The notes below the pieces were generated by a model. It saw only the letters and a list, made by a program, of their open reading frames with translations. It was not told the DNA's origin and did not search any database. A stretch of 64,000 nt of DNA from an uncultured Spirochaetia bacterium. Lineage in GTDB: Bacteria; Spirochaetota; Spirochaetia; CAZBHR01. The stretch's first letter is position 1; every line of letters begins with the position of its first letter. Below, one piece after another: positions 354 through 54,859 of this stretch. Both the position numbers and the translations under genes were made by a program. The stretch covers positions 106,568-170,567 of the forward strand of contig CAZBHR010000002.1 in NCBI GenBank assembly GCA_964492025.1, read 5' to 3'.

Positions 354-986
354 ATGTTGGGGTTAATGAAGAATCATCTATATGCAGGTATGTATGGAAT
401 AAAAATAGCATTGGGCACTACCATTCTTCTTGCTGGTGCTGGAGTTGTGTTATTATCAGCTGGAGAAGGTTTACCGATGGATATTTTCTTTGCGTATTCG
501 GTTGTAATGCTTCCCTTTTTAGCTGTTTGCTCTATTAGCCCAGAAAGTGGAGCTAAGTGGAGTAGTTTTGAGTTGACCTTACCTATCTCAAAAAAAGATG
601 CCGTAGGTGCACAATATGTTATGTATTTTTGTTTCATGGTGGTTGGCTTACTGATAAGCTTTGTCTCTTTTGGAGTAAACGATCTTATTAACCCTCAAGT
701 AGTTTCTGTGCCTAAAATGATTTTTTCTTTTGTACTTTCCGTGCAAGAAGCCTTTATTATAGGGAGTGTGGGATTTCTACTTCTGATATTATTTGGACAA
801 GATAAAAGGGAAGTAATGTTTCTTTTAGCCTTCTTTATATCTGTTCCTTTTTCTATTGGATTCAGAATACTATTGGCTATATATGATATTTGGTATTTTC
901 CAATACTTATTGTGGTGAGTAGTGCTTTGTTATACATACTCTCTTATCTAATTTCTGTGGCTATATATAAGAAGAAAGATTTTTAA
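354..986 (+). CDS. ABC-2-type transporter permease, paralog 1 of 4
   Basis: 210 aa, hydrophobic with several predicted TM helices. N-terminus MLGLMKNHLY and C-terminus YKKKDF are shared with the three following ORFs. AGAGGAG ribosome-binding site just upstream. Confidence 0.55.
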   Translation: MLGLMKNHLYAGMYGIKIALGTTILLAGAGVVLLSAGEGLPMDIFFAYSVVMLPFLAVCSISPESGAKWSSFELTLPISKKDAVGAQYVMYFCFMVVGLLISFVSFGVNDLINPQVVSVPKMIFSFVLSVQEAFIIGSVGFLLLILFGQDKREVMFLLAFFISVPFSIGFRILLAIYDIWYFPILIVVSSALLYILSYLISVAIYKKKDF

Positions 987-998
987 AGGGAGGTTAAT

Positions 999-1664
999 AT
1001 GTTGGGGTTACTAAAGTATAATTATCATTCCTCATGGAGCTCTGTTCTTTTATCCTTTATACTGTACTTAACAGTATTATTTTTGGTTGTTATTATTCAG
1101 AGTTCTCTGATGTTTTCTCTTGCTGTATCACTGTCTTCTATGATGTTCTCCTTTTGCATATTTAGTACATCTGACCATGTAGATACCTCTACGTTATGGG
1201 CAAGTTTTGAGTTCTTACTTCCTATTGAAAAGAAAAAAATAATCCTAGCAAGGTATATTACTTTTCTTGTGTTTCTTCTGATGGGAGTTGTTTTAGGTGG
1301 CATTATTGTATGGTTACAGTCTGTTTTACAACCAGCACTACCTCTTCATACTCTCTTACTGGATATGTTCTTAGGTGTTGGATTTGGACTAGGATTTGGT
1401 GCAACTTTGATGGTAGAAACTTCTGCTTCAAAATCAGGTGGCAACCAAGGAATATCTGGATTGGTTTTTCTTGTAGCACCATTTTTGATACTCATCACTG
1501 TGGTGTGGGGAGTTGCAAAATTGTATGAGGTTTCCTTTATACAACTGTTCTTAGATAAGAGTATATATACTGTTGCTCTCTCTATATTTGTTCCTACAAA
1601 TATTCTTTTATGGCTTATTTCGTATCCTGTAAGTGTAAAACTTTACAAAACAAAGGAGTTTTAA
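999..1664 (+). CDS. ABC-2-type transporter permease, paralog 2 of 4
   Basis: 221 aa membrane protein, N-terminus MLGLLKYNYH, C-terminus YKTKEF. AGGGAGG ribosome-binding site upstream. Confidence 0.55.
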   Translation: MLGLLKYNYHSSWSSVLLSFILYLTVLFLVVIIQSSLMFSLAVSLSSMMFSFCIFSTSDHVDTSTLWASFEFLLPIEKKKIILARYITFLVFLLMGVVLGGIIVWLQSVLQPALPLHTLLLDMFLGVGFGLGFGATLMVETSASKSGGNQGISGLVFLVAPFLILITVVWGVAKLYEVSFIQLFLDKSIYTVALSIFVPTNILLWLISYPVSVKLYKTKEF

Positions 1665-2297
1665 ATGTTTGGTTTAATAAAGCATAATATCTATACTGGG
1701 GGCTTCGTTTTTTTTGTTTGGTTTGCACTATGCGCTGCTATTCTTTTTATAACAGGTATTGTGTCTAACCTAGCCAATTTTTCCATAGCTGCTTTTGGGT
1801 TCCTTGTCACTACTCCTATGCTGAGTACTGGAATGGTAAAGAAAGAGATACTCAGTCGTTGGAGTGTACAAGAATCGGTATTACCTATAAGAAAATATCA
1901 AGTTGTGACTACAAAATATATAGTACACTGCATATATTTAATTCCTTGCCTTATAGGAATCTTTGCTATTTTCTTTGTATTACCCTTGAGTAAAAGTGCT
2001 GGAGCTACTGTAGAGATAAGTGTTTTCGTATTTCTAGGAGTTTGTTTATCGTTATTATATGGAGCCCTCTATATACCATTTTTGTATATCTTAAAAGAGG
2101 CGAATCCAGACATTGTATCCCCCCTATGCTCTTTAATTGCAGCGGGACTTTTCGTTCTATCTATGAATATTTTTGATGGATCTTCTCTCTTTGAGGGTTT
2201 TAGTATGCGGGCTGTATATATCGCTCTGTTTATTGGACTTGTCTATGTAGCTTCAAATATACTTTCTTGGTATGTGTACAAGAAACGAGAGTTTTAG
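1665..2297 (+). CDS. ABC-2-type transporter permease, paralog 3 of 4
   Basis: 210 aa membrane protein, N-terminus MFGLIKHNIY, C-terminus YKKREF. ATG directly abuts the stop codon of paralog 2, with AAAGGAG upstream. Confidence 0.55.
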   Translation: MFGLIKHNIYTGGFVFFVWFALCAAILFITGIVSNLANFSIAAFGFLVTTPMLSTGMVKKEILSRWSVQESVLPIRKYQVVTTKYIVHCIYLIPCLIGIFAIFFVLPLSKSAGATVEISVFVFLGVCLSLLYGALYIPFLYILKEANPDIVSPLCSLIAAGLFVLSMNIFDGSSLFEGFSMRAVYIALFIGLVYVASNILSWYVYKKREF

Positions 2298-2363
2298 TTG
2301 TTCAAAAACATGGACGTAGTCCATGAAAAATTAATCGGCCATATTGAGGCAAAGGAGAACAAT

Positions 2364-2969
2364 ATGTTTGGTTTAATAAAAGATGTAATACATGCTCACA
2401 AATCGACAGTAATTATCTATGTCATAGTAGTAGTTCTTATCTCGCTCATTGCAATGTGGATAGAACGCTTTGATTTTCTAGACCTTTTTATTCCTGGGAT
2501 TCCCCCAGTTGCCTGTGTCTTGTTTCTTCCAGAACTCTATGGAAGAGAGACTCATTGGCATAATCAAAAAGCTACGGAAAAGCAGGTTGTTGGGTCTAAA
2601 TATGTGGTATTTCTTATGGTAATTGGGTTATCTTTTTTAGTATCATTACTGTTAACTATGTTTATTTCAGCCTCTGGCGAAAAAATAGTTGAATTTTTCA
2701 GAGCAGAATCTGCTTACATGGGGGTATCTCTTATTCTTGGAGCTACGTTCCTATTGTTGGCACACTTCTTGAATAAATATTCTCATCTCGTAATTATGCT
2801 AGTGAGTATGCTTGTATTGGTGGGTATCCTTGCGCTCATATTTGGTCTCTATAGCATTATATCATTCCCCCAGTCATCAGAAAAATTTATTTTTCTTGCT
2901 ATCAGCTGCGTGTTGTATATTATATCTTATTTTGTGTCAGTAGGTGTGTACAAGAAACGAGAGTTCTAG
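2364..2969 (+). CDS. ABC-2-type transporter permease, paralog 4 of 4
   Basis: The ORF track starts at 2298, but the ATG at 2364 is preceded by AAAGGAGA and gives N-terminus MFGLIKDVIH, matching the other paralogs. C-terminus YKKREF. Confidence 0.55.
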   Translation: MFGLIKDVIHAHKSTVIIYVIVVVLISLIAMWIERFDFLDLFIPGIPPVACVLFLPELYGRETHWHNQKATEKQVVGSKYVVFLMVIGLSFLVSLLLTMFISASGEKIVEFFRAESAYMGVSLILGATFLLLAHFLNKYSHLVIMLVSMLVLVGILALIFGLYSIISFPQSSEKFIFLAISCVLYIISYFVSVGVYKKREF

Positions 2970-3030: not shown

Positions 3031-4818
3031 TTATACTTCTGCAGTGGCCTCCGCAAGCCACTCCTGAACCGGTTCTGCTAAAAGGGGAGCCAGTTCTGCA
3101 TACACTCCAGCGTGGTAGTCATTGAGCCAATCTTTCTCCTCTGCGGTGAGGGCATCTGTATTAATCAGTTTTCGCTCAAAGGGTGTTATGGTAAGGGTTT
3201 CAAAACCGAGCCACTGGGCAAACTCTGTTGTTTCGCGTTTCTCTACAAGTACGAGATTTTCCAGTCGTATTCCATGTTTCCCTTCACGGTAAAGTCCTGG
3301 TTCATTGGAAAGGTACTGTCCAGCTTCCAGAGCAACATTAATTCCCTTTGGAGAGATACTCATAGGCCCTTCGTGTACATTCATGAAAAATCCTACTCCG
3401 TGTCCCGTTCCATGGCCGTAGTTCAATCCTACATCCCAGAGTGGTTTTCGTGCCAGTATATCAATCTGGTGTCCAAAGGTTCCTACGGGAAACTGGGCTG
3501 TTGCTAAGGCAATATGCCCTTTGAGTACTGCTGTGTAATCGGAAACCTGCTCCTCTGTGGGCTCTCCAATTAAGAGGGTTCTGGTAATATCGGTGGTTCC
3601 GCAGAGGTACTGTCCTCCTGAATCAAACACCATAAGCCCCTGTCCAGAAAGTGGTGCCGATAGCTCCTTTGATGCATGGTAGTGGTTAAGTACTCCATTC
3701 TCCTGATACCCCGCAATGGTAGCAAAGCTTTCATCAGTAAATCCCTTTTGTGCAGATCGGCACTCCTTAATTTTCTCCATGGTGTCCCACTCTGTAAGGG
3801 TACTTTTATCTTCAATAGAGTCAAACCAGTGTAGAAAGTTTGCCATTGCTACTCCATCAAGCTTATGTGCCTCTCTGAGTTGTGCTTTTTCGGTCTCTGT
3901 TTTTACTGCTTTTCGTGTAGTTATTGGGTGGGGTGTTATCTCCTTACCTACAACACTCTTCTGGAACTTTGTTATGAGTCCATAGGGTGCTGAGGTGGGG
4001 TCAATAATTACAGTTCCCTGAAGGGCTTCTACCTGACCATATACGCTATCGTAGGGGAGGAGTGTTACACTCTCTCCCAGTTCTGCTTGTAGCTCTTTAC
4101 TAAACGCTTCAATATGGGTGCAGAGAATTGCTTGCTTATTTGGGTTTCTAGATATTATCAAAAACCCCTCAAAAACAGGGTTGTACTGTTGCACAGTTCC
4201 TCGCAGGTTTAGGAGGTACCCAATCTCCGCAAGGTTTGTAGAAAGAAGGACATCCGATTTCCGCTCTTCCATATAGGTATACGCCCATGCGAGTCTCTCC
4301 TCTCGGGTCTCTCCTGTGTACGATGAATCAAGCGATACCACTTGCTCTTCTGGTGGGTTTGGTCGGTCTTCCCAGAGGGGAAGAAAGATGTTTTCCATTC
4401 CTTGTAAGGTTATACCTGCTCCTTCCAGCTCTTTTTGTAGGTCTAAAAATCCCTTGAATGAGATAGTCATACTATCAACACCAATAACAGATCCCTTCGG
4501 CATTTCTGCTTTCAGCCAATCTCCGTAGGAGAGTACTTCAGGAAGACCAAATTTATGAATTTCTACAGAAGTGCCTTCAACTTCACGGGCTGCTTGTACA
4601 TAGTATCTGCTGTCCACCCAAAGGTGTATTGCATCTTGGAGAACTACCACGGTTCCGGCAGATCCACTAAAACCAGTAATTCCCTGGCGTTCCATCCAGT
4701 GGGGTGGGAGATATTCGGTCTGATGAGGGTCTGTCCCTGTTATAATCCACCCGTCTATATTCTGCTTTGTAAGCTCCTCTTGAACACGGGAAATGCGGTT
4801 GTTTATGGTACTTTTCAT
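3031..4818 (-). CDS. Xaa-Pro aminopeptidase (M24B, aminopeptidase P family)
   Basis: 595 aa. C-terminal catalytic region with HGTGHGVGFFMNVHEGP and downstream acidic metal-ligand residues typical of M24B. AGGAG ribosome-binding site upstream of the ATG at 4818. Confidence 0.75.
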   Translation of the reverse strand: MKSTINNRISRVQEELTKQNIDGWIITGTDPHQTEYLPPHWMERQGITGFSGSAGTVVVLQDAIHLWVDSRYYVQAAREVEGTSVEIHKFGLPEVLSYGDWLKAEMPKGSVIGVDSMTISFKGFLDLQKELEGAGITLQGMENIFLPLWEDRPNPPEEQVVSLDSSYTGETREERLAWAYTYMEERKSDVLLSTNLAEIGYLLNLRGTVQQYNPVFEGFLIISRNPNKQAILCTHIEAFSKELQAELGESVTLLPYDSVYGQVEALQGTVIIDPTSAPYGLITKFQKSVVGKEITPHPITTRKAVKTETEKAQLREAHKLDGVAMANFLHWFDSIEDKSTLTEWDTMEKIKECRSAQKGFTDESFATIAGYQENGVLNHYHASKELSAPLSGQGLMVFDSGGQYLCGTTDITRTLLIGEPTEEQVSDYTAVLKGHIALATAQFPVGTFGHQIDILARKPLWDVGLNYGHGTGHGVGFFMNVHEGPMSISPKGINVALEAGQYLSNEPGLYREGKHGIRLENLVLVEKRETTEFAQWLGFETLTITPFERKLINTDALTAEEKDWLNDYHAGVYAELAPLLAEPVQEWLAEATAEV

Positions 4819-4946
4819 TCTCTCTACTCCTAAGGGGATTATATTACTCTATGCTAGCAAAAAACATAGAGTTTTTACACCCCTTATTCTCTCTCTATTG
4901 ATTTATTTTTTTATGTGTATTACTTTGTGTATAGGAGTGTGTATAT

Positions 4947-31652: not shown

Positions 31653-33860
31653 ATGGAGGCTAAGTTTCGATCGGCTTATATTGGAGGGGGTGGATATATC
31701 CCTGGTATTATTCAAAATCAAGAGGACCCAAACATCCTGTACGCCCGATCCGACGTGGGCGGGGTATTTAAGTCAGAAAATGGGGGAAAAAGCTGGAGCC
31801 TCTGTAATAGGGGTTTTACAAAAGCCTTAGATCATTACTCTCAGGATCTTATCCTTGATCCAAAAAATCCACAGGTTCTTTTTCATGCGGCAGGGGAGTT
31901 ACGGGCTCATAAAAAACTTGGACGTATTCACCGATCCCTTGATGGAGGGAGCTCTTGGCAGTTGATGACCGAAGAGGTTGATTTTTTTGGTAATGGACCT
32001 ACAAGAATGAGTGGGCATGTTATGGCTATTCATCCAGAGGATTCCAATATTGTTATAGCCGGAGGATACTCAAAGGGTCTTTGGGTTAGTAGAGATGGAG
32101 GAGAGAGCTGGAAATACCAAGGGTTGGCGGGGAAAAGGATTACCTTTGTACTGTTTGACCCAGACAACTCAAATCACCTTTATATTGGATCAATTGAAGA
32201 TAAGGAGTTACTTATTGTAAAAGGACTCTCCGGAGATGAGAGAACACAGGCCCTTCTTGACTATCAGGATGAGCCACGAGCAGAGCAGAGTGAGCTTTTT
32301 CTGACAACCAATCTTGGTGAAACCTTTGATCAGGTGTATCAATGTGAACACGCAGGTTTTCTTGAGGCAGTTTTTGTACCTCATAGCAATGTTATTCTTA
32401 TAGCAACCTCTACGGGAGTACTTAGAAGTGAGAATAAAGGAAAGTCCTTTCAGATGGTTCCTCATGAGATTCTTCCTCAAGGAGGTTTTTACCAAGCCAT
32501 TGCAATCTCCCCTGTAGATGGAACACTGTATGTAGCTCAAAAGTACTCTGACATAGACTGCCCCATATACACATCACAGGATTTAGGAGTTACCTGGAAT
32601 CTGTTTGCTCCAGAGGTGCAACCATCTCACATGCATGAGTTTCCAGAACACCTCTCTGAACCGAGACATCTGGGTGGAATAGGATCCATTGCATCTCTTA
32701 TGCCAGACTGCAAGGATCCAAATAAGCTGTACTTCTCTAACTTCTGGGGGGTTACAGTTACCTATGATAGGGGTGTAAATTTTTATGGGCATTACTTTAC
32801 AGGGTTAGAAATGACCTGTATTGAGCATGTGATAAAACATCCTACTCAACAGGGGAGGGTGGTTCTCTCCATTGTTGATCACGCCCCTATGGTGAGTGAT
32901 GATTCCGGAGAGAGTTATCACGCCATAACCTTGCCCTTTGATGTGAATAATCAACCATCTCGGTCGGTTGCAGTTTCTCGGCATGATTCGGACTTTCTTA
33001 TCTGGTCTATGGGAAGGGTACATCGAAACCGAGGGCTTGAAGTGTACCGCTCTTTCAAAAGAGGGAAAGATGCGGAGCTGGTGTTTCACAAAGGGGGGCA
33101 ATCCTTTATCTCCTGTTTGTATGAGGATCTTCACAGAAAAGGACGGTTTTGGATGATTAATGAGGGAAGTTTACAAGATCCATCGGAGGATGCCGGGGTG
33201 TTTTGTTCTGATGACTTTGGAGCTTCTTGGCAAAAAGTAACCTCTCCCTATCCTAATTATATGGAGAGAATTCCCCATAAGAAAGAGTTTATAGATAGGG
33301 ATTTCATTACGGTAGTTCCTTATCAATTTCGGAACGGAAGTGGCGCAAATAAGCATCTATGTGGGGATTATAAAAAGCAAGATGTTATCTATGTAGGAGA
33401 GTATAGCGAAGGGCTGTACCGCTCCGATAACGGGGGAGTATCTTGGGTAGACATATCGCAGGGGCTTCCATTTCATGATGACCCTGTTCATCTTCTTTCT
33501 CATGTTGTGGCAGATCCCGATGCCGAGGGAACCGTGTATGCTGGGTTCTGGAAAGCAGGATTATGGCGTTCCCAAGATTTTGGATCCTCTTGGAGTAAGG
33601 TGTTTCCAAAGGGCAATCAGGACTTTAATGCTGTTACGTTATCTATTGATAAGGGAGTAATTGCTGTTGCCTGTGCGGAAAACACCCATAGCCCTGTTCC
33701 CGCAGATCTACATATATCCTATGATAAAGGAGTAAGTTGGCAGACCCTCTATGATGACTCCCTAGGATCATTATCTTTTAACTCCATATCCCTAGATTCT
33801 GATAAACGTAGAATTTATGCGGGTACTTGTGGGAATGGTATTTTTACTATCGACTATTAG
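31653..33860 (+). CDS. BNR/Asp-box repeat protein, GH74-like (putative xyloglucan-active glycoside hydrolase)
   Basis: 735 aa. N-terminal GGGGYIPGI motif and at least eight S-x-D-x-G-x-(S/T)-W Asp-box repeats (e.g. SENGGKSW, SLDGGSSW, SRDGGESW). No signal peptide. Confidence 0.55.
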   Translation: MEAKFRSAYIGGGGYIPGIIQNQEDPNILYARSDVGGVFKSENGGKSWSLCNRGFTKALDHYSQDLILDPKNPQVLFHAAGELRAHKKLGRIHRSLDGGSSWQLMTEEVDFFGNGPTRMSGHVMAIHPEDSNIVIAGGYSKGLWVSRDGGESWKYQGLAGKRITFVLFDPDNSNHLYIGSIEDKELLIVKGLSGDERTQALLDYQDEPRAEQSELFLTTNLGETFDQVYQCEHAGFLEAVFVPHSNVILIATSTGVLRSENKGKSFQMVPHEILPQGGFYQAIAISPVDGTLYVAQKYSDIDCPIYTSQDLGVTWNLFAPEVQPSHMHEFPEHLSEPRHLGGIGSIASLMPDCKDPNKLYFSNFWGVTVTYDRGVNFYGHYFTGLEMTCIEHVIKHPTQQGRVVLSIVDHAPMVSDDSGESYHAITLPFDVNNQPSRSVAVSRHDSDFLIWSMGRVHRNRGLEVYRSFKRGKDAELVFHKGGQSFISCLYEDLHRKGRFWMINEGSLQDPSEDAGVFCSDDFGASWQKVTSPYPNYMERIPHKKEFIDRDFITVVPYQFRNGSGANKHLCGDYKKQDVIYVGEYSEGLYRSDNGGVSWVDISQGLPFHDDPVHLLSHVVADPDAEGTVYAGFWKAGLWRSQDFGSSWSKVFPKGNQDFNAVTLSIDKGVIAVACAENTHSPVPADLHISYDKGVSWQTLYDDSLGSLSFNSISLDSDKRRIYAGTCGNGIFTIDY

Positions 33861-33914
33861 TGGTTACTTAGATATGGGGCTCCTCTTCTGAGGAGCCCCA
33901 GTTATTTTACAGAA

Positions 33915-35090
33915 CTATTTGAGTTTTGCCCAATCACCTCGTAAGAAGTGATCCTGCTTTATATTTCCATGGGTCCATCCTGCAAGGCCCGTCCACTCTT
34001 TGTATGGGGCTTTCCAAAAACGGTGCTTAGGGGGGAGACCAAGTGGCAGAAATGCCATACAGCAGAAGTACTGGCTTCCTATAGAAAGGTAGTACTCTCC
34101 TAGTTTATCTTGCTCACCATATACTCCCATGGTGAGCCATCCATTTGCATCGAAGATATTTGGATTTTCCATGGTCTTTTCTATAACGGCGGTCATTGCC
34201 GAGCGTATTTGATTTGGTGCAAGATTTTTTGGGAGTAATCCATGGAGAGCAAGGTGTCCTAAGTGCTGAAAAGCACCAAACCGATAGGTGAGTGAACGAC
34301 CAATAAGTGGGTAGGTCCCATCGGGACCAATCATTCTTTCAAGTACCTGTGCGTATCGGGAACCTCGTTTGAGCTGTTCTTTATACAGTTTAGTAAAGTA
34401 GGGAAGTTCCTTTTTTACCTGAAACAGAACATCCATCATCATAGGCTGAATTACAAAGCTATTGTAGTAATCCCATGCAAACTCAGGACCATCACCATAA
34501 GCACCATCACCTACATACCAGTCATCGTGGGACCTAAGGGCGTACTCAATTCGTGTAATATCGTAGGCCTCTCCTATGCTACATAAAAAGGTCTCAATGA
34601 TAGCAGAAAAGAGTAACCAGTTACTGTAGTCTGGTCTATGTTTTCTACTCTCTTGAAAAGCAGCTAAAAGTTGCTGTTTTGTTTCCGATGGAAGAGGTTC
34701 CCAAAGCTGCTTTGGAGCTCGATAAAAGGCATTTGCCAAGTATGCAGCATGTACAAGTTGGGTCTTATTACGAAGGAAATCTGCATAATCCTTTGCCTGT
34801 GGGTTTACAAGGTTTATAACTCCCTCTCGAGCCATAACTCTAAATTTTTGCTGAAGATCTTTCTCCTCACCTTGGGGTAACTGAACCTCAAGCCAGGGAG
34901 CAATTCCTGCTAAAACACGACTACACCCCTCTAGATTACTAAAGAAATAGGCTCCCGCTTTTCTTTTTGGGAACACCTCCAAAAGTCTATCCTCTGCTAA
35001 GGCAGATAGAAGTGGCTCCGTGATTTTTACCATGGTGTCAATCCAAAATTGTCGGACTGGTTTTCCTCGTTCCATTGAATACTGCATCAA
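33915..35090 (-). CDS. Conserved hypothetical protein, possibly carbohydrate-active (DUF2264-like)
   Basis: 391-aa soluble ORF with no signal peptide and good coding character; family assignment is from memory only. Confidence 0.4.
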   Translation of the reverse strand: MMQYSMERGKPVRQFWIDTMVKITEPLLSALAEDRLLEVFPKRKAGAYFFSNLEGCSRVLAGIAPWLEVQLPQGEEKDLQQKFRVMAREGVINLVNPQAKDYADFLRNKTQLVHAAYLANAFYRAPKQLWEPLPSETKQQLLAAFQESRKHRPDYSNWLLFSAIIETFLCSIGEAYDITRIEYALRSHDDWYVGDGAYGDGPEFAWDYYNSFVIQPMMMDVLFQVKKELPYFTKLYKEQLKRGSRYAQVLERMIGPDGTYPLIGRSLTYRFGAFQHLGHLALHGLLPKNLAPNQIRSAMTAVIEKTMENPNIFDANGWLTMGVYGEQDKLGEYYLSIGSQYFCCMAFLPLGLPPKHRFWKAPYKEWTGLAGWTHGNIKQDHFLRGDWAKLK

Positions 35091-36245: not shown

Positions 36246-38023
36246 AGGGTGCTCTCTTTTGTACTTTCAAATGGAGTATCTATTGATTTCTCTAGGGTAA
36301 ATGGGATTGCTGGAATAATAAGGCTCACCGTAGTGTGGGAGTCTGGCTCACTCATTATGTGTACATCCGCCCCCTCTCCATAGTACAGTTTAATCCGCTT
36401 ATACACATTTTTCATGCCTACACCCTCAAGATTTTCGGAGTCTCTCATATTTTTGTCTATCCTTTGAATCTGTTCATCTGTGAGTCCGTATCCCGTATTG
36501 GTCACTTCAAATATCAGGTTCTCCTCATTACGGTAACCTTTGACGGTAATATGTTCTGTCTCACCGTGAACGCCATGCTCTATCGCATTTTCTACTAATG
36601 GTTGTAAAAGTAGCTTCATAGTAGAGTAGGGGTATATTTCTGGTGATATATCAATAGTATAGTTAAACCGTTGGTCGTATCGGATCTTTTGAATTACCAA
36701 ATAGCTTGTAATATGGGCTACCTCATGTTCCACTGATATAATGCTTTTTCCTCGAGATATACTAATTCTAAAAAATCGAGCCAGTGCGGTAACCATAGTA
36801 ATAACATCTTCCGTTCTACTGTGTTCTGCTAACCACACAATGGAGTCTAGTGTGTTATAAAGAAAGTGTGGATTTATCTGATTTTGAAGAATTCGCAGTT
36901 CTGTTTTTCGCTTTTCTCTCTGTTCCTCTACAACCCGAGACATGAGGAGTTGGATCTCCTCTGCCATGGTGTTAAATGCGTGTGCCACCACCATAAGCTC
37001 TTTTTGTCCTGAGATATGAAGTTTTGTTTTAAAGTGACCCTGCTCAATCTTTGCCATACTTTTTCGGAGTTCTTTGAGAGGACGGGTGATACGAGAGGAT
37101 ACCCCAACGCTTATGCCTACTGTTGCAACCAAGCTTATCAACCCAATAATAAGGATAAGTCTCCAGATAGTGGCAATCGCTATAGGTATAGAGTTTACAT
37201 TATTGACGGTAACAATTCTCCATCGAGTATTATCAAGGGTGTTTATATTTACCATCATAGCAACTCCCTCTACTGAAATAGGGTGGGACCCAAAAAATTT
37301 TGAGACAGCAAATGGGTAAACAACCTCTTGAGAGATTGGTAATTCTGGTGCCGAGTTGTAGATGAGTGCATCCTCCTCATTGATAATGAGAAGGTGTCCA
37401 TTAAGACCTAGATTGGTGAGCTCTGCGAGCCTTGTTAATACTTCAAAATTTAACTCAATAAGAAGAACTCCTTGACGGGTAAATCCACGTTTTTTATATG
37501 AAATAACCTTTGAGACTGAAATAACCTCCTCAGTATGTGTCTGATACATACTCTGGGCATGGGGTGCTGAAAAGTAAAAAATGTTCTCTCTGTATATACT
37601 CTGGTAAAACCACTCTTGTTGCTGAATAGCTTCAGAGTAAGATGTTCCTAGTTCTCTTCCTACTACTCTGTTTCCAGAAAGATCAAAGAGGGTTATCCCA
37701 ACTACATCTTCTTTCATGTCTGAGTTGAGAGAGTAGGCTTGAGAAATAATAGAGTAGTCCGTTTCTGTATCATAAGAACTTGATACTTGTTGCAGGTAGT
37801 TTGATGTTTCTATTACATCGTTTATGTACCGCTGATAATTAAAAATTATCTGCTTATTAATCTCTTTTGATTGACTTTTAATAAGAGTATTTGCCTCTTT
37901 TGAGAATATAGTAGGGTAGATAAGCATGTTTAATCCCAGAACAACAAGGACAATCCCAACAATAGTTATGGTAATAATTGCAGCAATAGAAAGTCTATCT
38001 CTAAGAGTTCTGAATCTGTTCAC
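36242..38023 (-). CDS. Sensor histidine kinase (YesM/LytS-type)
   Basis: N-terminal TM helix, extracytoplasmic region, second TM helix, HAMP, then His-kinase and ATPase domains (QINPHFLYNTLDSI, ENAIEHG). The ORF track extends to 38137, but the GTG at 38023 with AAAGAGG upstream is the more likely start. Confidence 0.75.
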   Translation of the reverse strand: MNRFRTLRDRLSIAAIITITIVGIVLVVLGLNMLIYPTIFSKEANTLIKSQSKEINKQIIFNYQRYINDVIETSNYLQQVSSSYDTETDYSIISQAYSLNSDMKEDVVGITLFDLSGNRVVGRELGTSYSEAIQQQEWFYQSIYRENIFYFSAPHAQSMYQTHTEEVISVSKVISYKKRGFTRQGVLLIELNFEVLTRLAELTNLGLNGHLLIINEEDALIYNSAPELPISQEVVYPFAVSKFFGSHPISVEGVAMMVNINTLDNTRWRIVTVNNVNSIPIAIATIWRLILIIGLISLVATVGISVGVSSRITRPLKELRKSMAKIEQGHFKTKLHISGQKELMVVAHAFNTMAEEIQLLMSRVVEEQREKRKTELRILQNQINPHFLYNTLDSIVWLAEHSRTEDVITMVTALARFFRISISRGKSIISVEHEVAHITSYLVIQKIRYDQRFNYTIDISPEIYPYSTMKLLLQPLVENAIEHGVHGETEHITVKGYRNEENLIFEVTNTGYGLTDEQIQRIDKNMRDSENLEGVGMKNVYKRIKLYYGEGADVHIMSEPDSHTTVSLIIPAIPFTLEKSIDTPFESTKESTL

Positions 38024-39593
38024 GGTACCTCTTTGGGGAAACTCCCTCGTATTTTTTAAAACTGTGGCTAAAGTAATATACGTCACTATATCCACACTTT
38101 TCTGCAATCTCAATAATTCGTTGTGGTGTCCGTGCAAGGAGCTCTTTTGCCTTTTCTATTCTAATTTGCGTAAGGTGTTTTACAAAGGTCATATTCTGCT
38201 GCTTAAAGAGTAGGCTCAGGTATGATTGACTAATCTCTAGGGTATCAGAAATATTAACCATAGCAAGTTTTGGGTTTGCATACTCCATTGTCATAAGGTT
38301 AAGGGCTTTTTTGAAAAGTGCTTCTGCTCTAGAGACGTTGTTTTCTAGGTTCGCCTCACGTATCTGAATAATTCTTTTAAGTCCCCAGTTGAGAGCCTCT
38401 TCTACTCCTTGAAACTGATTAAGCATCTGTAGTGGAGATATTTCCTGCCCGCCCAGAGAGCTTATCCCTAAAGACTCTTCTACAGAAGTTACAATATGAG
38501 CAAGATGAATAAGAAAGTTTTGAAAAGAGAGTTTCGTCATTTTTTTTGTGACTAAGAGATCATTGAGGCCCTTGAATGCTACTGATACCTCTTCTAAGGT
38601 TCCCATTTTGGAGAGGTACTCAAGATTTTGTAGATCCCCTGAAGGAATAACAAAGGTATCTTGTGATGGTTTTTGAAGCTGATGTATGTATACAATATCA
38701 CTGGGACCCAAGTACGATGCATGGTGGAGAGCTCGGTTTGTCTCCTCGTATGGGGTGCTAATATCTAAAATTGAGTGGTACGGGTTACTTACTCCCAGAT
38801 GAATATTTGTAGATAAAACCTTTTCTGATACCTTAATCATTTCAAAAAATATGGTATCCATTCTTTTTGAAAACGTTTCATCATCAATCTGTATTATACA
38901 AAGAATGGACCCCGCAAATTGCAAACTGTGAAATGTTACATTGTGTCGCTCCAGTGTTTTCTCAATAAGTGATCGAAGAGAAATTTTCTGTTTTTCATGC
39001 TCAAGAATGGAAGACTTTCCCTTAGGTATATCAGTTTTCACTTGAACCAGAATATAATCACCATGAACGGTTATACCTATGGGCTCTGGTTGTTGTGACT
39101 TTTTCTCTGAAAAGGGGTTCATAAGAAGTGATATTAAGTAGTTCTCTGTGAGAAGAGGAATAGTTGCCTGATACTGGTCCTGTAACTGCTGTATGTTCTT
39201 CTGTTCCTCAGCCTCTTTGTCAAGCTCCTCTTTTATACGTTTAAGGAATTGAGATATGTCATCCGATGTTACGGGTTTGGTAAGGTAACTTATTACATTT
39301 AGGTTGATCGCTCTCTGGGCATAGTCAAATTCATCGTACCCAGAGAGAAAGGCAACACGAATAGTGGGATAGTCATGCTGAATAATAGATGCAAGTTCTA
39401 ATCCATCAATGTAGGGCATTTTGATATCTGTAAGTACCACATGGGGAGAGAGTTTTTCTATGAGATCTATAGCGTCGTAGCCATTACTGGCAGTTCCAAC
39501 CACCTCAAAACCCTGCTGTGCAGAGATCTTCTCCGTAACTCTTCCCCGAACCTCATTTTCATCGTCTACAATGATTAGCTTGTATCGTTCCAT
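38001..39593 (-). CDS. Response regulator with receiver and AraC-type HTH domains (YesN-like)
   Basis: Receiver domain begins MERYKLIIVDDENEV; C-terminal AraC helix-turn-helix. Start set to ATG 39593; the 39-aa upstream ORF extension has no receiver-like sequence. Confidence 0.75.
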   Translation of the reverse strand: MERYKLIIVDDENEVRGRVTEKISAQQGFEVVGTASNGYDAIDLIEKLSPHVVLTDIKMPYIDGLELASIIQHDYPTIRVAFLSGYDEFDYAQRAINLNVISYLTKPVTSDDISQFLKRIKEELDKEAEEQKNIQQLQDQYQATIPLLTENYLISLLMNPFSEKKSQQPEPIGITVHGDYILVQVKTDIPKGKSSILEHEKQKISLRSLIEKTLERHNVTFHSLQFAGSILCIIQIDDETFSKRMDTIFFEMIKVSEKVLSTNIHLGVSNPYHSILDISTPYEETNRALHHASYLGPSDIVYIHQLQKPSQDTFVIPSGDLQNLEYLSKMGTLEEVSVAFKGLNDLLVTKKMTKLSFQNFLIHLAHIVTSVEESLGISSLGGQEISPLQMLNQFQGVEEALNWGLKRIIQIREANLENNVSRAEALFKKALNLMTMEYANPKLAMVNISDTLEISQSYLSLLFKQQNMTFVKHLTQIRIEKAKELLARTPQRIIEIAEKCGYSDVYYFSHSFKKYEGVSPKRYREQIQNS

Positions 39594-39602
39594 ATAAAAG
39601 AT

Positions 39603-39611
39603 ATTATACCA
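39603..39611 (-). promoter_or_regulatory. Extended -10 promoter element (TGgTATAAT) just upstream of the regulator ATG
   Basis: On the minus strand, TGGTATAAT is followed by 9 nt and then ATG, with no Shine-Dalgarno sequence in between. This predicts a leaderless or near-leaderless transcript. Confidence 0.3.
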
Positions 39612-39741
39612 CAGCTTCAGAAGTGAAACAATTATATTGTTGAAACTATTTTTTCGTCTGGAGAATGGTGCGTATCTGTCGTTAAATGGACAAAAAAAGG
39701 AGCTACCCAAAGGCAGCTCCTACAATATTACAATGCACCAT

Positions 39742-40347
39742 TTATGGGGTGGTACCATCCTCTGGTGGAGTAGGGATATGGGTAATAATAATTTTAGCTA
39801 CCCAAGATTGGTCTGGGTCTCTTTCAATGTAGAAAGGCCTTGTTTCTGAGGGAACAAAAAGGCTATCTGAGGCACTCTCCCAGGTTGTTCCATAGAGGAA
39901 TTTTGAATCCTCAATATAAGGGTTAAAAAAGGTCTCTAAGTCTGCTGAGTAGCTTTTTCTCCTCCCTTCAATAGTTGCACTGAGGTATGTGTAGTCTCCA
40001 ATAAGGTTATACTCTCTTTCATATTCATTTCCCGATGTATATGCTTCATAATCAAAAAATTGTATTGACGAAATTGATCGGACCATCAGGCTTTCTTCCC
40101 CTTCAAAAAGCTCATTGCTGGAGTATGCAGTAGATGACTGGTGGTACCCGTAGGGGATAATATCTGTAAAAGAAAAATCCACTGACCCCAACTGGTAGTT
40201 TGAATCTACCGAAATAACAATGTTTTCTGCTGTTCTATTTTCGATGATAATTGTTGATACGTTTTGGTATCCCCCAACGTAACAGGGTCCACAGCTTATG
40301 ATAAGTGCGAGAATAGGTATGGTAAATAGTAGTAGTTTTTTCATCAT
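39742..40347 (-). CDS. Lipoprotein of unknown function (paralog A)
   Basis: 201 aa, signal peptide with lipobox LIISC. C-terminal block TRPFYIERDPDQSW...IIITHIPTPPEDG is shared with the upstream ORF. Confidence 0.5.
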   Translation of the reverse strand: MMKKLLLFTIPILALIISCGPCYVGGYQNVSTIIIENRTAENIVISVDSNYQLGSVDFSFTDIIPYGYHQSSTAYSSNELFEGEESLMVRSISSIQFFDYEAYTSGNEYEREYNLIGDYTYLSATIEGRRKSYSADLETFFNPYIEDSKFLYGTTWESASDSLFVPSETRPFYIERDPDQSWVAKIIITHIPTPPEDGTTP

Positions 40348-40354
40348 TTTCTCC

Positions 40355-41014
40355 TTAATTGAGTACCGGTATGGTTGGAACTTTAGTAATAATAACTCTC
40401 CCTAAACTGTCATCTTCTGTATCTCGTTGTAGGTAAAAAGGTCTTGAGTCATCGTCAGCTGGAGCAACAAAAAGCCTCTCCGAAAAATTAGGGTCATTTG
40501 TCGCTTCCCAGCTAAGGCCGTAATAAAATATATCATCGGGGTACGCATCCTCATATATCGGGTTTGGAGGACCTATGGAGAGTCTCGCTTGATCATTGAT
40601 TTGACTCGCTCTATTCTGTATAAACTCCCTATCTACCTGAGAGTAGGGGTACATATAATCTGCGATAAACTCCTGTGTTATAGGGTTATATATTTTCAAA
40701 CCACTAAATGCTCTTAGCATGATATTTGGTCTTTCAAAGTCGTTGGAGTGAGCTGAGCTATAGTAGTATGTGAGGTCAATCTTGGTGGACTCTCCCGCAG
40801 GAACAGTCATCTTGGGAGTAGCTTCAACAGGCATGTCATAATAGTAATTTCCAGAGTGGTTCATAAATAGGGTTATTGAAAGATCTTCTGTGGTTGTATT
40901 GTCTATAGATACGGTGTATTCAACGGTTGTCTTTGTTATGGGTACTTTCCCCCAAGGATAGCATCCCACAATAAGCAACAGAGGAACTATGAGCATTAAG
41001 CCATGTTTTTTCAT
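40355..41014 (-). CDS. Lipoprotein of unknown function (paralog B)
   Basis: 219 aa, lipobox LIVGC. C-terminal block SRPFYLQRDTEDDS...VIITKVPTIPVLN. AAAAGGAG ribosome-binding site. Confidence 0.5.
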   Translation of the reverse strand: MKKHGLMLIVPLLLIVGCYPWGKVPITKTTVEYTVSIDNTTTEDLSITLFMNHSGNYYYDMPVEATPKMTVPAGESTKIDLTYYYSSAHSNDFERPNIMLRAFSGLKIYNPITQEFIADYMYPYSQVDREFIQNRASQINDQARLSIGPPNPIYEDAYPDDIFYYGLSWEATNDPNFSERLFVAPADDDSRPFYLQRDTEDDSLGRVIITKVPTIPVLN

Positions 41015-41038
41015 AGATGTACTCCTTTTGTGTATACA

Positions 41039-41066
41039 ATTCTATCACGTATTGCTAAGAAGTCAA
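41039..41066 (-). promoter_or_regulatory. Sigma-70-type promoter candidate for the lipoprotein pair
   Basis: On the minus strand: TTGACT (41066-41061), 16-nt spacer, TAGAAT (41044-41039), about 25 nt upstream of the ATG at 41014. Confidence 0.35.
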
Positions 41067-51922: not shown

Positions 51923-54859
51923 ATGTTATATATGAAAGAGTTATATAGAGTAGGTGAGTGGGATGAGGAAACATTAGGAAATCATCGGCTTCTTATTCAA
52001 GCTGATGACACGCAACCCGCTGTTCATTGTATGGTTTCGTGGAGGCGATCTGATTTTAATCCAGAAAAGAAGGGTGTCTTTATTCGACCCCAGGGAAAGT
52101 CTAATTTTATTAAGAGGGTACATGTTAAGCATATTTCTCAAGAAGAGTTGGATCTTATTTTTGAGCCGGTACAAGGAGTAACCACCTATGAGGTGTATTA
52201 TATGCGATTCGAGGGTACCACCAGAGCCCCCTATTCTGTGATTAATTACCTTCCTGTACAAATATGTGAAGACGCCTCTTGGGTGAGCCAGTATAACAAA
52301 GTTGCCGAATCACTTCCACAAGCAGAGCTTATAGCTTTTGAATCATGTAGTGATTTTCACTCCTATTTTCCTATGGAAATCCCTGCAGGAACAGGAAGTG
52401 TAAAGGAGTTAACCGCTGCTCATGGTGATAAGAATTTTCTGATATTTCCAGAAGTTCGAGAGAACTCCATAAAAATGAGAAAAGACCTTCCTCATCATTG
52501 GGTTGAGCAAGGCCCTTTTGCCTCTCTTTCTTCTGAGGTTTTTCAAGGGGAGTATTACGTATTTCAACTTGGAGTTTTTGCTCATAGAGAGAATATTACG
52601 ATTAATAGTGTCTCTTTCTCCTTTCCTAAAAGCTCTGGAGCTTCTTCCTGGGATGGAACCTGTTTTAACCTTGAGGGTGTAAGTTATCTGGGAGAATCCT
52701 TTACAAAGGATATTATTCTTGTTAAAGGAGAGGTTCAGGCCTTATGGGCAGGGGTGCAAATTCCTGATGATATATCTCCATCAGTATATACTATCGATGT
52801 AACCGTAGAAACTGTTGAGTGTGGATCTGAAACGGTAACCCTTAAGCTAGACTGCCAAGGTAAGAGTATTGTTGATAAGGGTGATGATGACCCATACAGA
52901 TTATCTCGGCTTCGGTGGTTGAACTCTACCATAGGATCTGAAGATGCGGTTATTAGCCCCTATATTCCGGTTACCAGATCGGGAGATACCTTTGCCATAC
53001 TTGGTAGAGATGTAACTCTTGGAAAGAGTGGTCTTCCTCATGCAATCCACAGCTATTACACTCCAGAGGTTACTAGTGTGGGAGATGAAGCATTTCCTAT
53101 ACTGGGAGCACCTATGGAATTCTCCGTATTGGATCAGAGTGCTAGTGAAGTTCTATGGAGTAGGGAGTCTCTCGTTTTTCAAGATACTCCTGAAGCGACC
53201 CAATCTTTTTCTCAGGTAAGTAGTTCTCCATCTTTAGAGCAAAGGCTATCTGCAACAATTGAACCAGATGGGTGCCTAGAGTACTCCATGGTTCTTTCTG
53301 CAAAAGAGAGAACTGAACTCAAGGATGTTAGCCTCTCTCTCCCTTTTCATAAGAATGTACTCAAGTATATGCTTGGTTTAGGTTTTAAGGGTGGAGCTAT
53401 TCAAGATGACTTTGAGTGGAGTTGGAATACAAAAAAGAAAAATCAAGACTCCCTGTGGATTGGTTGTGAAAGGGGAGGTGTTCAGGTTTTCTTGAGCGAT
53501 GACCATTACAACCGTCCCCTTAACACAAACTTTTACCACCTACAGCCGTTGGTAACTCCCGTTTCTTGGGACAACCAGGGTAAAGGACGAATCACGTTTA
53601 AGAAACATACAGACTATGGTATGGTAACCTGTTCTAGTGGGGATCGAGTTATGGAGAAAGGGGAATCTTTGGTATTTAACTTTCGACTGCTCATAACACC
53701 ATTTCGACCAATTGATACGTATAAACAGTGGAACTCTCGGTTTATCCATGAATTTAAGCCACTGGATGAGGTTAAAGAGAGTAGGGCTAACGTAGTAAAC
53801 ATTCACCATGCGAAACCGGTAAACCCCTTTATTAATTACCCATTTTTGCGAACAAAGGAGCTAAAAGAGTATATTGATGAAGCCCATGATATGGATATGC
53901 GGGTACGACTGTATTACACCATTAGAGAGCTTACGAATCACGCTCCAGAACTGTTTGCCCTACGAAGTTTGGGGCATGAAGTGTTCTCTTCTGGTCCTGG
54001 GGGAGGGCAATCTTGGTTACAGGAACACCTGTATGAAGACTATATTGCGGCGTGGCATGTTTTTGAGTACGGCTGTTGTGCAATTGCCAATACAGGGTCT
54101 TCTCGCTGGACCAACTTTTACCTAGAAGGATTAGATTGGCTTACGCGAAAACTTAAGATTGATGGAGTGTATATTGACGACCTAGCATTTGGACGTGGAA
54201 CCATGAAGAGAATGCGACGAGTATTAGACACCCACCGTACAGATGCACTTATAGACCTTCACTCAGCAAATCAGTTTAACGATAAAGATGGATATGCAAA
54301 TAGTATTAACATGTATATGGAAAACTTACCCTATATTGATAGACTCTGGTTTGGTGAATACTTTGAGTATGATAAAGAACCGGAGTATTGGATGACAGAG
54401 GTTGCGGGGATACCCTTTGGCCTTATGGGCGAAATGTTACAAGATGGGGGGCATATATGGCGAGGAATGCTGTACGGTATGACCAGTCGTTATCCTCATG
54501 AAACAGGAGACCCCAGAAGACTCTGGGAAATCTGGAATGACTTTGGAATTTCCGATACAGAGATGTATGGGTACTGGTCTCCAAATATTCCTGTTGTAAC
54601 ACCCTGTGATGATATACTGACCACCGTATACCTGAAACCAGATGGAGCAGGAGCGATGATTGCAGTTGCTAGTTGGAACGATGAAGATGTATCTGTGACC
54701 TTTGACTATGACTGGGAAAAGCTTGGAATGAACCCTGATAAAGTAATAGTACGATCTCCTTATATTGAAAGAGATCAGGAGGAAGCGGAGTATCAGGTAG
54801 GGGAGAGTATTCCTATTAAGAAAAACCAAGGAGCAATACTTATTATCCAGGAGAAGTAA
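51923..54859 (+). CDS. Large cytoplasmic protein of unknown function, possibly glycoside-hydrolase-like
   Basis: 978-aa uninterrupted ORF with no signal peptide, co-oriented with the LplABC-like transporter. Start may be ATG 51923 or 51932. Function not recognisable by eye. Confidence 0.4.
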   Translation: MLYMKELYRVGEWDEETLGNHRLLIQADDTQPAVHCMVSWRRSDFNPEKKGVFIRPQGKSNFIKRVHVKHISQEELDLIFEPVQGVTTYEVYYMRFEGTTRAPYSVINYLPVQICEDASWVSQYNKVAESLPQAELIAFESCSDFHSYFPMEIPAGTGSVKELTAAHGDKNFLIFPEVRENSIKMRKDLPHHWVEQGPFASLSSEVFQGEYYVFQLGVFAHRENITINSVSFSFPKSSGASSWDGTCFNLEGVSYLGESFTKDIILVKGEVQALWAGVQIPDDISPSVYTIDVTVETVECGSETVTLKLDCQGKSIVDKGDDDPYRLSRLRWLNSTIGSEDAVISPYIPVTRSGDTFAILGRDVTLGKSGLPHAIHSYYTPEVTSVGDEAFPILGAPMEFSVLDQSASEVLWSRESLVFQDTPEATQSFSQVSSSPSLEQRLSATIEPDGCLEYSMVLSAKERTELKDVSLSLPFHKNVLKYMLGLGFKGGAIQDDFEWSWNTKKKNQDSLWIGCERGGVQVFLSDDHYNRPLNTNFYHLQPLVTPVSWDNQGKGRITFKKHTDYGMVTCSSGDRVMEKGESLVFNFRLLITPFRPIDTYKQWNSRFIHEFKPLDEVKESRANVVNIHHAKPVNPFINYPFLRTKELKEYIDEAHDMDMRVRLYYTIRELTNHAPELFALRSLGHEVFSSGPGGGQSWLQEHLYEDYIAAWHVFEYGCCAIANTGSSRWTNFYLEGLDWLTRKLKIDGVYIDDLAFGRGTMKRMRRVLDTHRTDALIDLHSANQFNDKDGYANSINMYMENLPYIDRLWFGEYFEYDKEPEYWMTEVAGIPFGLMGEMLQDGGHIWRGMLYGMTSRYPHETGDPRRLWEIWNDFGISDTEMYGYWSPNIPVVTPCDDILTTVYLKPDGAGAMIAVASWNDEDVSVTFDYDWEKLGMNPDKVIVRSPYIERDQEEAEYQVGESIPIKKNQGAILIIQEK

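Follow-up and report, generated by a model that had tools for sequence, protein, structure and literature searches.

A stretch of 64,000 nucleotides (nt) from contig CAZBHR010000002.1 of an uncultured Spirochaetia bacterium, hereafter the window, carries two adjacent genes coding for small putative lipoproteins, LP1 and LP2, to which attention had been drawn by a reading of the sequence alone (the original prediction). The two open reading frames (ORFs) were found where that prediction had placed them, 7 nt apart and both on the minus strand: LP1 at 40355..41014 (219 amino acids, MKKHGLMLIVPLLLIVGC) and LP2, its paralogue, at 39742..40347 (201 amino acids from the first ATG, MMKKLLLFTIPILALIISC). 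Both are lipoprotein precursors by the usual sequence criterion, each N-terminus being made up of a basic n-region, a hydrophobic core and a lipobox. The signal peptide of LP1 covers residues 1-17 (signal region MKKHGLMLIVPLLLIVG-C), with the lipobox IVGC (LLIVG-C) and the codon of Cys18, the residue predicted to be lipidated, at 40963..40961; LP2 begins with M(M)KKLLLFTIPILALIIS-C and has the lipobox IISC (LIIS-C). The signal peptides and lipoboxes claimed for both ORFs are thus confirmed, and the lipobox cysteine is invariant in 42 of the 42 family members aligned below. We infer that LP1 and LP2 would be exported, lipidated on this cysteine and tethered in the cell envelope.

Formal alignment of the two proteins gave a significant similarity (BLASTP E=9e-13, 27% identity over the full length), as expected for tandem paralogues. 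The C-terminal blocks that had been described as distinctive are present as DSRPFYLQRD...RVIITKVPT in LP1 and as ETRPFYIERD...KIIITHIPT in LP2. The unusual composition that had been noted was also verified, tyrosine accounting for 8.4-8.7% of the residues of LP1 and LP2 against 4.0% in the window proteome, and Tyr, Phe and Trp together for 14-15%. The mature proteins are acidic, with 28-29 Asp and Glu residues for 10-15 Lys and Arg. Mature LP1 has about 200 residues, and about 180 mature residues are found in the family. Identity between orthologues ranges from 76 to 100% for LP1 and from 64 to 100% for LP2.

Expression signals surround the pair on the same strand. The near-consensus promoter that had been proposed is of the sigma-70 type and occupies 41039..41066, with the -35 hexamer TTGACT at 41066..41061, a 16-nt spacer and a TG-extended -10 element, TGaTAGAAT, at 41047..41039; transcription of LP1 and LP2 is predicted to start near 41032. 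In a consensus scan, TTGACT-16-TAGAAT scored 10 of 12 matches in addition to the TG of the extended -10. The same scan found 5 promoter-like sites overall against 5.9 expected in shuffled sequences, a total not above chance, and proves little by itself. The promoter is nevertheless regarded as real because an alignment of the upstream spacer from six loci (the window, L022, L020, L021, L001 and L015; L labels designate genome or metagenome loci carrying relatives, and P labels family proteins) shows the -35 element (TTGACTTCT), the TGnTAnAAT and the Shine-Dalgarno sequence to be invariant, while in L001 and L015, the two distant loci, substitutions have accumulated freely in the rest of the spacer.

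The Shine-Dalgarno sequence of LP1, AAGGAG, was read from the sequence at 41022..41027, 7 nt upstream of the ATG, and is kept as AAGGAG or AGGAGG in all six loci, in agreement with the strong ribosome-binding site proposed earlier. That of LP2, AGGAGA at 40350..40355, also read from the sequence, includes the final base of the LP1 TAA stop codon, an arrangement implying that translation of the two genes is coupled. It is separated by 2-3 nt from the first ATG of LP2 and by about 6 nt from the second. Because of this spacing, and because the LP2 orthologues of L020 and L001 were called from the equivalent of the second ATG (200 amino acids), LP2 probably starts at the second ATG, at 40344, which gives a protein of 200 amino acids.

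Downstream, a terminator scan revealed a feature that the original prediction had not mentioned, an intrinsic terminator at 39688..39721 on the minus strand. It lies 20 nt past the LP2 stop codon and consists of a 10-bp hairpin rich in guanine and cytosine (GC) at 39721..39698, AGGAGCTGCC-TTTG-GGTAGCTCCT, followed by a T-run, TTTTTTTG. Hairpin and T-run are also kept in L022, L020 and L001, and they set the LP1-LP2 pair apart from the response-regulator gene that follows. At the sequence level, these signals show LP1 and LP2 to constitute a self-contained, translationally coupled bicistronic unit, with a promoter and a terminator that are both conserved. A separate conserved extended -10 element precedes the response-regulator gene (38001..39593, minus strand), TGTGGTATAAT, within 39593..39620, which ends about 9 nt before the ATG and is kept in L022, L020 and L001. 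Given this short distance and the lack of a Shine-Dalgarno sequence, the regulator mRNA is probably leaderless or nearly so.

Searches of LP1 and LP2 against Pfam, NCBIfam, PADLOC and PHROGs returned no model at or near threshold, and a profile search of PDB sequences returned a single chance match to an immunoglobulin (Ig) domain (E 0.007). The earlier statement that the proteins resemble no recognisable family therefore holds for all of these collections. With E values of up to 10 allowed, no Pfam match was listed for LP2 and only fn3_5, DUF1573 and Cep192_D4 for LP1. Residues 22-90 of LP1 gave sub-threshold, Ig-like hints to fn3_5 (16.3 bits for a gathering cut-off of 27.6), DUF1573 (13.0 for 26.1) and choice-of-anchor D (16.6 for 45).

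Relatives were sought on a much larger scale. Word-indexed searches of 5.8 billion clusters recovered three close clusters, defined at 90% identity, for each protein. An exhaustive hidden Markov model (HMM) search of 1.84 billion (1.84e9) representatives with a profile of six window-type sequences returned 65 matches, among which P0027, P0037 and P0060, which are repeat proteins, were discarded as spurious. The profile built from these six sequences alone recovers high-GC members of the family at E values down to 1e-30. The 52 members gathered by a second profile search are all without a source name and without precomputed Pfam domains, and an exact-sequence look-up of P0004 found no record. 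Among 185,579 species genomes, 13 genome loci with relatives were found, all of them in metagenome-assembled genomes labelled Spirochaetia with a GC content of 66-70%, as would be expected from the spirochaete-type host that had been predicted; a scan of JGI metagenomes with a narrower alignment added only three further loci. Judged from these sequence searches, the family is real, rare and unannotated, and is apparently restricted to spirochaetes as far as its members are labelled.

Alignment of 42 sequences (23% mean identity) revealed that the lipobox Cys18, N39, L181 and R191 are invariant and that Y122, F182, P192, F193, Y194, R197, D198, I209, T210 and P213 are conserved in at least 90% of the members. 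The family can be defined by the lipobox cysteine and a strand ending in the invariant asparagine (x-[IV]-x-N) in its N-terminal part, and by the block LF-x(4-10)-RPFY[LI][EQ]RD-x(6-9)-[IV][IV]IT-x-[VI]P in its C-terminal part; every one of these elements is present in both LP1 and LP2. P0013 (L028 199-2797, L029, L030) lies within an array of small lipoproteins, two of which match the family at the N-terminal strand only (E of about 1e-8 or no match). The three loci come from the same metagenome assemblies as the close relatives of the window, and the array hints at a wider, more divergent superfamily.

The same 42-sequence alignment was used for structure prediction by AlphaFold2. The resulting model of LP1 is a beta-sandwich (predicted local distance difference test, pLDDT, 83.9; predicted template modelling score, pTM, 0.80) in which strands formed by residues 27-127 are followed by a variable, partly helical insert at about 129-160 and by C-terminal strands carrying the conserved motif. 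A first model, computed from a 6-sequence alignment, was not used (pLDDT 55.8). Modelling and composition together show LP1 and LP2 as predicted beta-sandwich lipoproteins that are acidic and rich in aromatic residues.

The duplication that gave rise to the pair appears to be old. In a neighbour-joining tree LP1 groups with P0007 and LP2 with P0008, and these two proteins are encoded in L015 by adjacent genes, in the same order and directly downstream of cmoB. Tree pairing and shared order place the duplication before the split between LP1/LP2 and P0007/P0008, and the retention of both copies since then argues for non-redundant roles. Elsewhere in the family, tandem arrays have arisen independently, with five copies in L003, three in both L006 and L019, and two in each of L005, L007 and L008. 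Moreover, P0010, P0011 and P0017 are fusions of two family domains, the second of which is without a lipobox, and in L026 two neighbouring genes code for two family domains each. By the Rosetta-stone argument, such fusions suggest that neighbouring copies act as a physical pair.

The gene neighbourhoods of the relatives provide the main functional lead. An envelope protease gene adjoins a family gene in 11 of the 22 distinct family loci, and no other neighbour family recurs in this way. The proteases are of several kinds, namely omptin-like barrels (8 loci), lipoprotein astacins (4 loci) and a C11 peptidase (1 locus), and the adjacency takes at least six different arrangements in lineages ranging from 44% to 69% GC. 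Omptin-family outer-membrane barrel genes (PF01278, above the gathering score) lie directly after or between family genes in L002 (10700-11707), L004 (10246-11148), L006 (8731-9714), L009 (6360-7346), L010 (10348-11292) and L013 (11940-12917). A further omptin-like gene is present in L023 (6246-7148); L011 has fragments beside a family gene, and so has L009 at another position. Start and stop codons of the lipoprotein and omptin-like genes overlap in L006. When about 280 kb of flanks were scanned with an omptin-like profile built from the first six matches, every match was found on the same strand as a family gene and at most about 1.8 kb away from it. Lipoprotein astacins (PF01400) with an intact HExxHxxGxxH motif are encoded directly upstream of a family gene in L009 and L010; an upstream astacin gene overlaps by 16 nt in L027, and the gap is 2 nt in the low-GC loci L031-L032. 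Finally, the LP2-like gene of L015 overlaps the gene of a clostripain-family (C11) lipoprotein by 4 nt.

Two features of the omptin-like proteins were observed in addition. At the position of the catalytic Asp83 of Escherichia coli OmpT they carry an asparagine (GxLVNLDYLD against GNMVDQDWMD), while Asp85 and the Asp-x-His pair are retained as judged by eye, the hmmsearch alignment not reaching Asp-x-His; these neighbours may be altered or inactive proteases. Many high-GC family lipoproteins (L003 7994-10830) share with the neighbouring omptin-like proteins (L002, L004, L006, L009, L010 and L013) a vicinal Cys-Cys before the first beta strand, which could be a disulfide or a metal site. A search of the literature on omptin, lipoprotein and spirochaete found nothing relevant.

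Since half of the family loci have an adjacent protease gene, translationally coupled in several cases, a protease-binding role is our preferred reading, and we propose tentatively, with a confidence that stays somewhat below even, that LP1 and LP2 form a heterodimeric envelope lipoprotein pair serving as partner or inhibitor of proteases. For the window pair, this function is an inference from distant relatives. Both proteins would be lipid-anchored in the cell envelope and would work jointly, a heterodimer of two beta-sandwich domains being the probable form, as suggested by the side-by-side order that has been kept and by the fusions found elsewhere. The pair would bind envelope proteases, either as tethered inhibitors guarding the cell's own envelope or as subunits that anchor or stabilise the enzymes. 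Because no protease gene was found near the window pair, its target would be a protease encoded elsewhere in the genome or a foreign one.

A number of observations weigh against a protease partnership. Pfam scans of 32 of the 47 window ORFs of at least 150 amino acids (30 besides the pair) found no protease, no window ORF of at least 60 amino acids matches the omptin-like profile, which has no match in the close low-GC loci either, and the LP pair closes at its own terminator. The other 11 of the 22 family loci are without an adjacent protease, and no similarity in fold or sequence to any known inhibitor was found. The window proteins are 23-28% identical to the high-GC, protease-linked members and 24% identical to the low-GC, astacin-linked P0015, LP1 being 41% identical to the C11-linked P0007. 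Three catalytic classes are linked to the family, yet its conserved motif is nearly invariant, a pattern more easily explained by a shared structural core, or by a shared partner other than a protease, than by reactive loops specific to each class. Composition adds a further difficulty: the GC content at third codon positions (GC3) of family genes and adjacent omptin or astacin genes is 0.5-0.8 against 0.85-0.98 in the surrounding genes (L003-L014, L019), and transposases lie beside family or protease genes in L009 and L013, as does an integrase in L031. Shared atypical GC3, insertion sequence elements and the integrase imply that the adjacency may partly reflect genes travelling together in islands rather than function.

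The same observations suit a different account, possible but in our opinion rather doubtful, according to which the family has some other envelope role unrelated to proteases, for example structural or in membrane homeostasis, and the adjacency results from shared mobile islands of atypical composition. It would accommodate the half of the family loci, the window included, that have no protease neighbour, as well as the low GC3 common to family genes and protease neighbours and the transposases or integrase adjoining them in L009, L013 and L031; the conserved promoter, ribosome-binding sites and terminator of the window pair likewise suggest stand-alone, probably strong expression. Mere co-residence in islands is harder to reconcile with the start/stop overlaps or gaps of 2-42 nt between lipoprotein and protease genes in L006, L009, L010, L015, L027 and L031, or with the confinement of all omptin-like matches in the flanks to the immediate same-strand vicinity of family genes. 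In addition, astacin and lipoprotein genes are paired in lineages of low (44%) as well as high (68%) GC, a recurrence that points to selection for the pairing.

A more general version of the protease-partner proposal, which we consider unlikely, would make the whole family a new class of spirochaete-specific, membrane-tethered, Ig-like beta-sandwich protease regulators working in pairs. The pairs would consist of two genes or of one fused chain and would clamp or inhibit astacins and omptin-like barrels, the window pair being an orphan guard that faces proteases encoded elsewhere or made by competitors. We know of no dedicated bacterial protein partners or inhibitors described for astacins or omptins, of which these would be the first.

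The setting of the pair in its own genome brings in carbohydrates. The gene order shared by the window and its three closest relatives is cmoA-cmoB, LP1-LP2, an AraC-type response regulator, a Cache/HAMP histidine kinase and a periplasmic sugar-binding protein, and the genes outside this block vary between the four genomes. Genes for sugar transporters and glycoside hydrolases are numerous in the wider window, and the host is probably a free-living or environmental, sugar-degrading organism, on whose habitat the literature yielded nothing. At 31653..35090 and 51923..54859 are found genes for a BNR/sortilin-type protein (GH74-like), a DUF2264 protein and a GH123-family protein, GH denoting glycoside hydrolase; several sugar ATP-binding cassette systems and a GH4 enzyme are also encoded, and together these genes indicate a specialised glycan-degrading lifestyle.

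This setting raises the question of whether LP1 and LP2 could be glycan-binding accessory lipoproteins with a SusE/SusF-like role, serving the adjacent sugar-sensing two-component system, the periplasmic binding protein, and the ABC importers and hydrolases nearby. Carbohydrate-binding modules are typically beta-sandwiches rich in aromatic residues, carbohydrate genes abound in the region, and the succession of LP1, LP2, regulator, kinase and binding protein is syntenic in four genomes whose outer genes differ. On the other hand, the pair has its own promoter and is closed by a strong terminator ahead of the regulator gene, itself provided with a separate conserved promoter; in L015, the pair located after cmoB precedes the C11 peptidase gene and not a two-component system. 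For these reasons (conserved terminator, promoter of the regulator, different downstream gene in L015) a functional link between the LP pair and the two-component system was judged unlikely. As, moreover, carbohydrate genes accompany the family at none of its distant loci and neither protein has a Pfam match to any carbohydrate-binding module or SusE/F family, a glycan-binding role appears quite improbable.

Other features of the region were observed in passing. Four head-to-tail paralogous ORFs for polytopic membrane proteins of 210, 221, 210 and 223 amino acids occupy 354..2969 on the plus strand; each ends in YKK(K/R)(D/E)F, their GC content is 0.34-0.36 for a window average of 0.40, and the array looks like ABC-2-type permease-like proteins. 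In L020, a ParE/PhdYeFM toxin-antitoxin pair (4351-4946) is inserted between birA and bioY, a position where none is present in the window or in L001. No tRNA, rRNA or other Rfam family was found in the 64-kb window, which leaves no such gene for a taxonomic placement.

The four genomes sharing the conserved block made it possible to compare rates of nonsynonymous (dN) and synonymous (dS) substitution, and these bear on the suggestion of the original prediction that lipoprotein pairs of this kind are often surface-exposed, variable antigens or adhesins, which would diversify under host, phage or predator pressure. Many spirochaete lipoproteins are surface-exposed, and LP1 and LP2 are lipoproteins of a spirochaete. 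Their dN/dS ratios (0.14-0.64 for LP1, 0.17-0.31 for LP2) are 3-8 times those of their neighbours, which range from 0.04 to 0.12 for cmoA/B, birA, the regulator, the kinase and the binding protein, with the exception of a value of 0.22 for the binding protein in the closest pair, the window and L022. Every ratio is, however, well under 1, and both LP genes are under purifying selection.

The elevation of the ratios has different components in the two genes. At 0.144, the dN of LP1 is unremarkable, since cmoB and the binding protein have values of 0.126-0.145, and its dN/dS is raised mainly because its dS is unusually low. In the three genome pairs that are more distant, this dS is 2.8-7 times below that of the neighbours outside the family (for the window and L001, 0.39 against 1.1-2.3). 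Codon bias was rejected as the cause, the effective number of codons (Nc) being 51.3 for a window median of 48.7, and no long ORF was found on the opposite strand of LP1; allele sharing by recombination and constraint at the nucleotide level are possible sources of the low dS. The dN of LP2, at 0.225, is the highest in the block. Between the window and L022, identity is 97-100% across LP1, the regulator and the kinase and 83-92% across 39740..40190, the C-terminal two-thirds of LP2, where L020, more distant overall, is 93-97% identical in part. LP2 is mosaic between strains, which suggests recombination within the gene.

Mosaicism and a high dN of LP2 could be expected of a variable antigen. 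Conversely, no repeats, no cassette copies in the window and no likeness to known adhesins were found, the conserved motif and core persist in very distant members, and the surrounding genes point to a sugar-degrading host that is probably environmental. There is no sign of the positive or diversifying selection expected for variable antigens; the suggestion was not borne out, and we regard an antigen or adhesin function as very unlikely.

Returning to the protease-partner proposal, its confirmation would reveal an unrecognised, spirochaete-specific lipoprotein family that controls or anchors astacin, omptin-like and C11 proteases. It would provide an approach to the question of how spirochaetes shield an envelope rich in lipoproteins against proteases, whether their own or foreign, and new protein scaffolds for the inhibition of astacins or omptins. 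Regardless of the protease link, about 100 unannotated proteins now have a family definition (motif, fold and distribution), and a conserved architecture of promoter, ribosome-binding sites and terminator is documented in an uncultured spirochaete lineage. The present standing of these results is modest, that of two well-defined hypothetical lipoproteins with a suggestive, indirect functional lead; the family is undescribed and its linkage to proteases constitutes a new testable lead.

Comparison with known proteins yielded resemblances of very different value. An apparent N...RPF resemblance suggested chagasin, an Ig-fold inhibitor of cysteine peptidases (MEROPS I42; NPTTG, GxGG and RPW/F loops), a candidate that was rejected, since hhalign of the family alignment against Trypanosoma cruzi chagasin gave a probability of 0.5% (E 0.13) and no Pfam I42 match was obtained. 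The PUD-1/PUD-2 heterodimer of Caenorhabditis elegans (PDB 4jde) is a very weak structural match (template-modelling score 0.23-0.34, 11% identity); these proteins differ in being eukaryotic and not lipoproteins, and the resemblance is probably that of generic sandwiches. Ig-like or PapD-MSP-type domains (fn3_5, DUF1573, choice-of-anchor D) are reached by LP1 with 13-17 bits for cut-offs of 26-45 and by LP2 not at all, and nothing in these families corresponds to the RPFY(L/I)(E/Q)RD...I(I/V)IT block.

Closer parallels are found in systems where lipoproteins accompany proteases. In the dentilisin system of the spirochaete Treponema denticola, the lipoproteins PrcB and PrcA anchor the PrtP protease in the outer membrane and stabilise it (PMC8167434). 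Like LP1 and LP2, PrcB is a small (about 23 kDa) spirochaete lipoprotein; PrcB and PrcA are lineage-restricted, share an operon with an envelope protease and take part as two different lipoproteins in one complex. The dentilisin protease is a subtilisin, whereas the neighbours of the LP family are astacins, omptin-like proteins and a C11 peptidase, and the operon of the window is without a protease. Pfam holds a PrcB model, and neither LP1 nor LP2 gave an above-threshold Pfam match that would indicate homology to PrcB or PrcA, no direct comparison with the PrcB sequence having been made.

The potempins PotA-E of Tannerella forsythia are outer-membrane lipoproteins that inhibit the KLIKK peptidases; they are encoded next to peptidases of different catalytic classes and co-transcribed with them (PMC9890683). 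The window pair is bounded by its own promoter and terminator, and no peptidase gene was seen among the window ORFs scanned; adjacency of the potempin type occurs in its relatives L004, L006, L009, L010, L013, L015, L023, L027 and L031, and the potempin layout, a family gene directly upstream of an omptin-like or C11 gene, is found in 9 loci. Like the potempins, the LP family consists of small lipoproteins that had no earlier family assignment and whose relatives are encoded beside peptidases of several classes; the logic is alike, and fold, size and sequence differ. Should the protease link prove true, LP1, LP2 and their relatives would thus be analogous in logic to both the potempins and PrcB/PrcA while being unrelated to them in sequence and fold.

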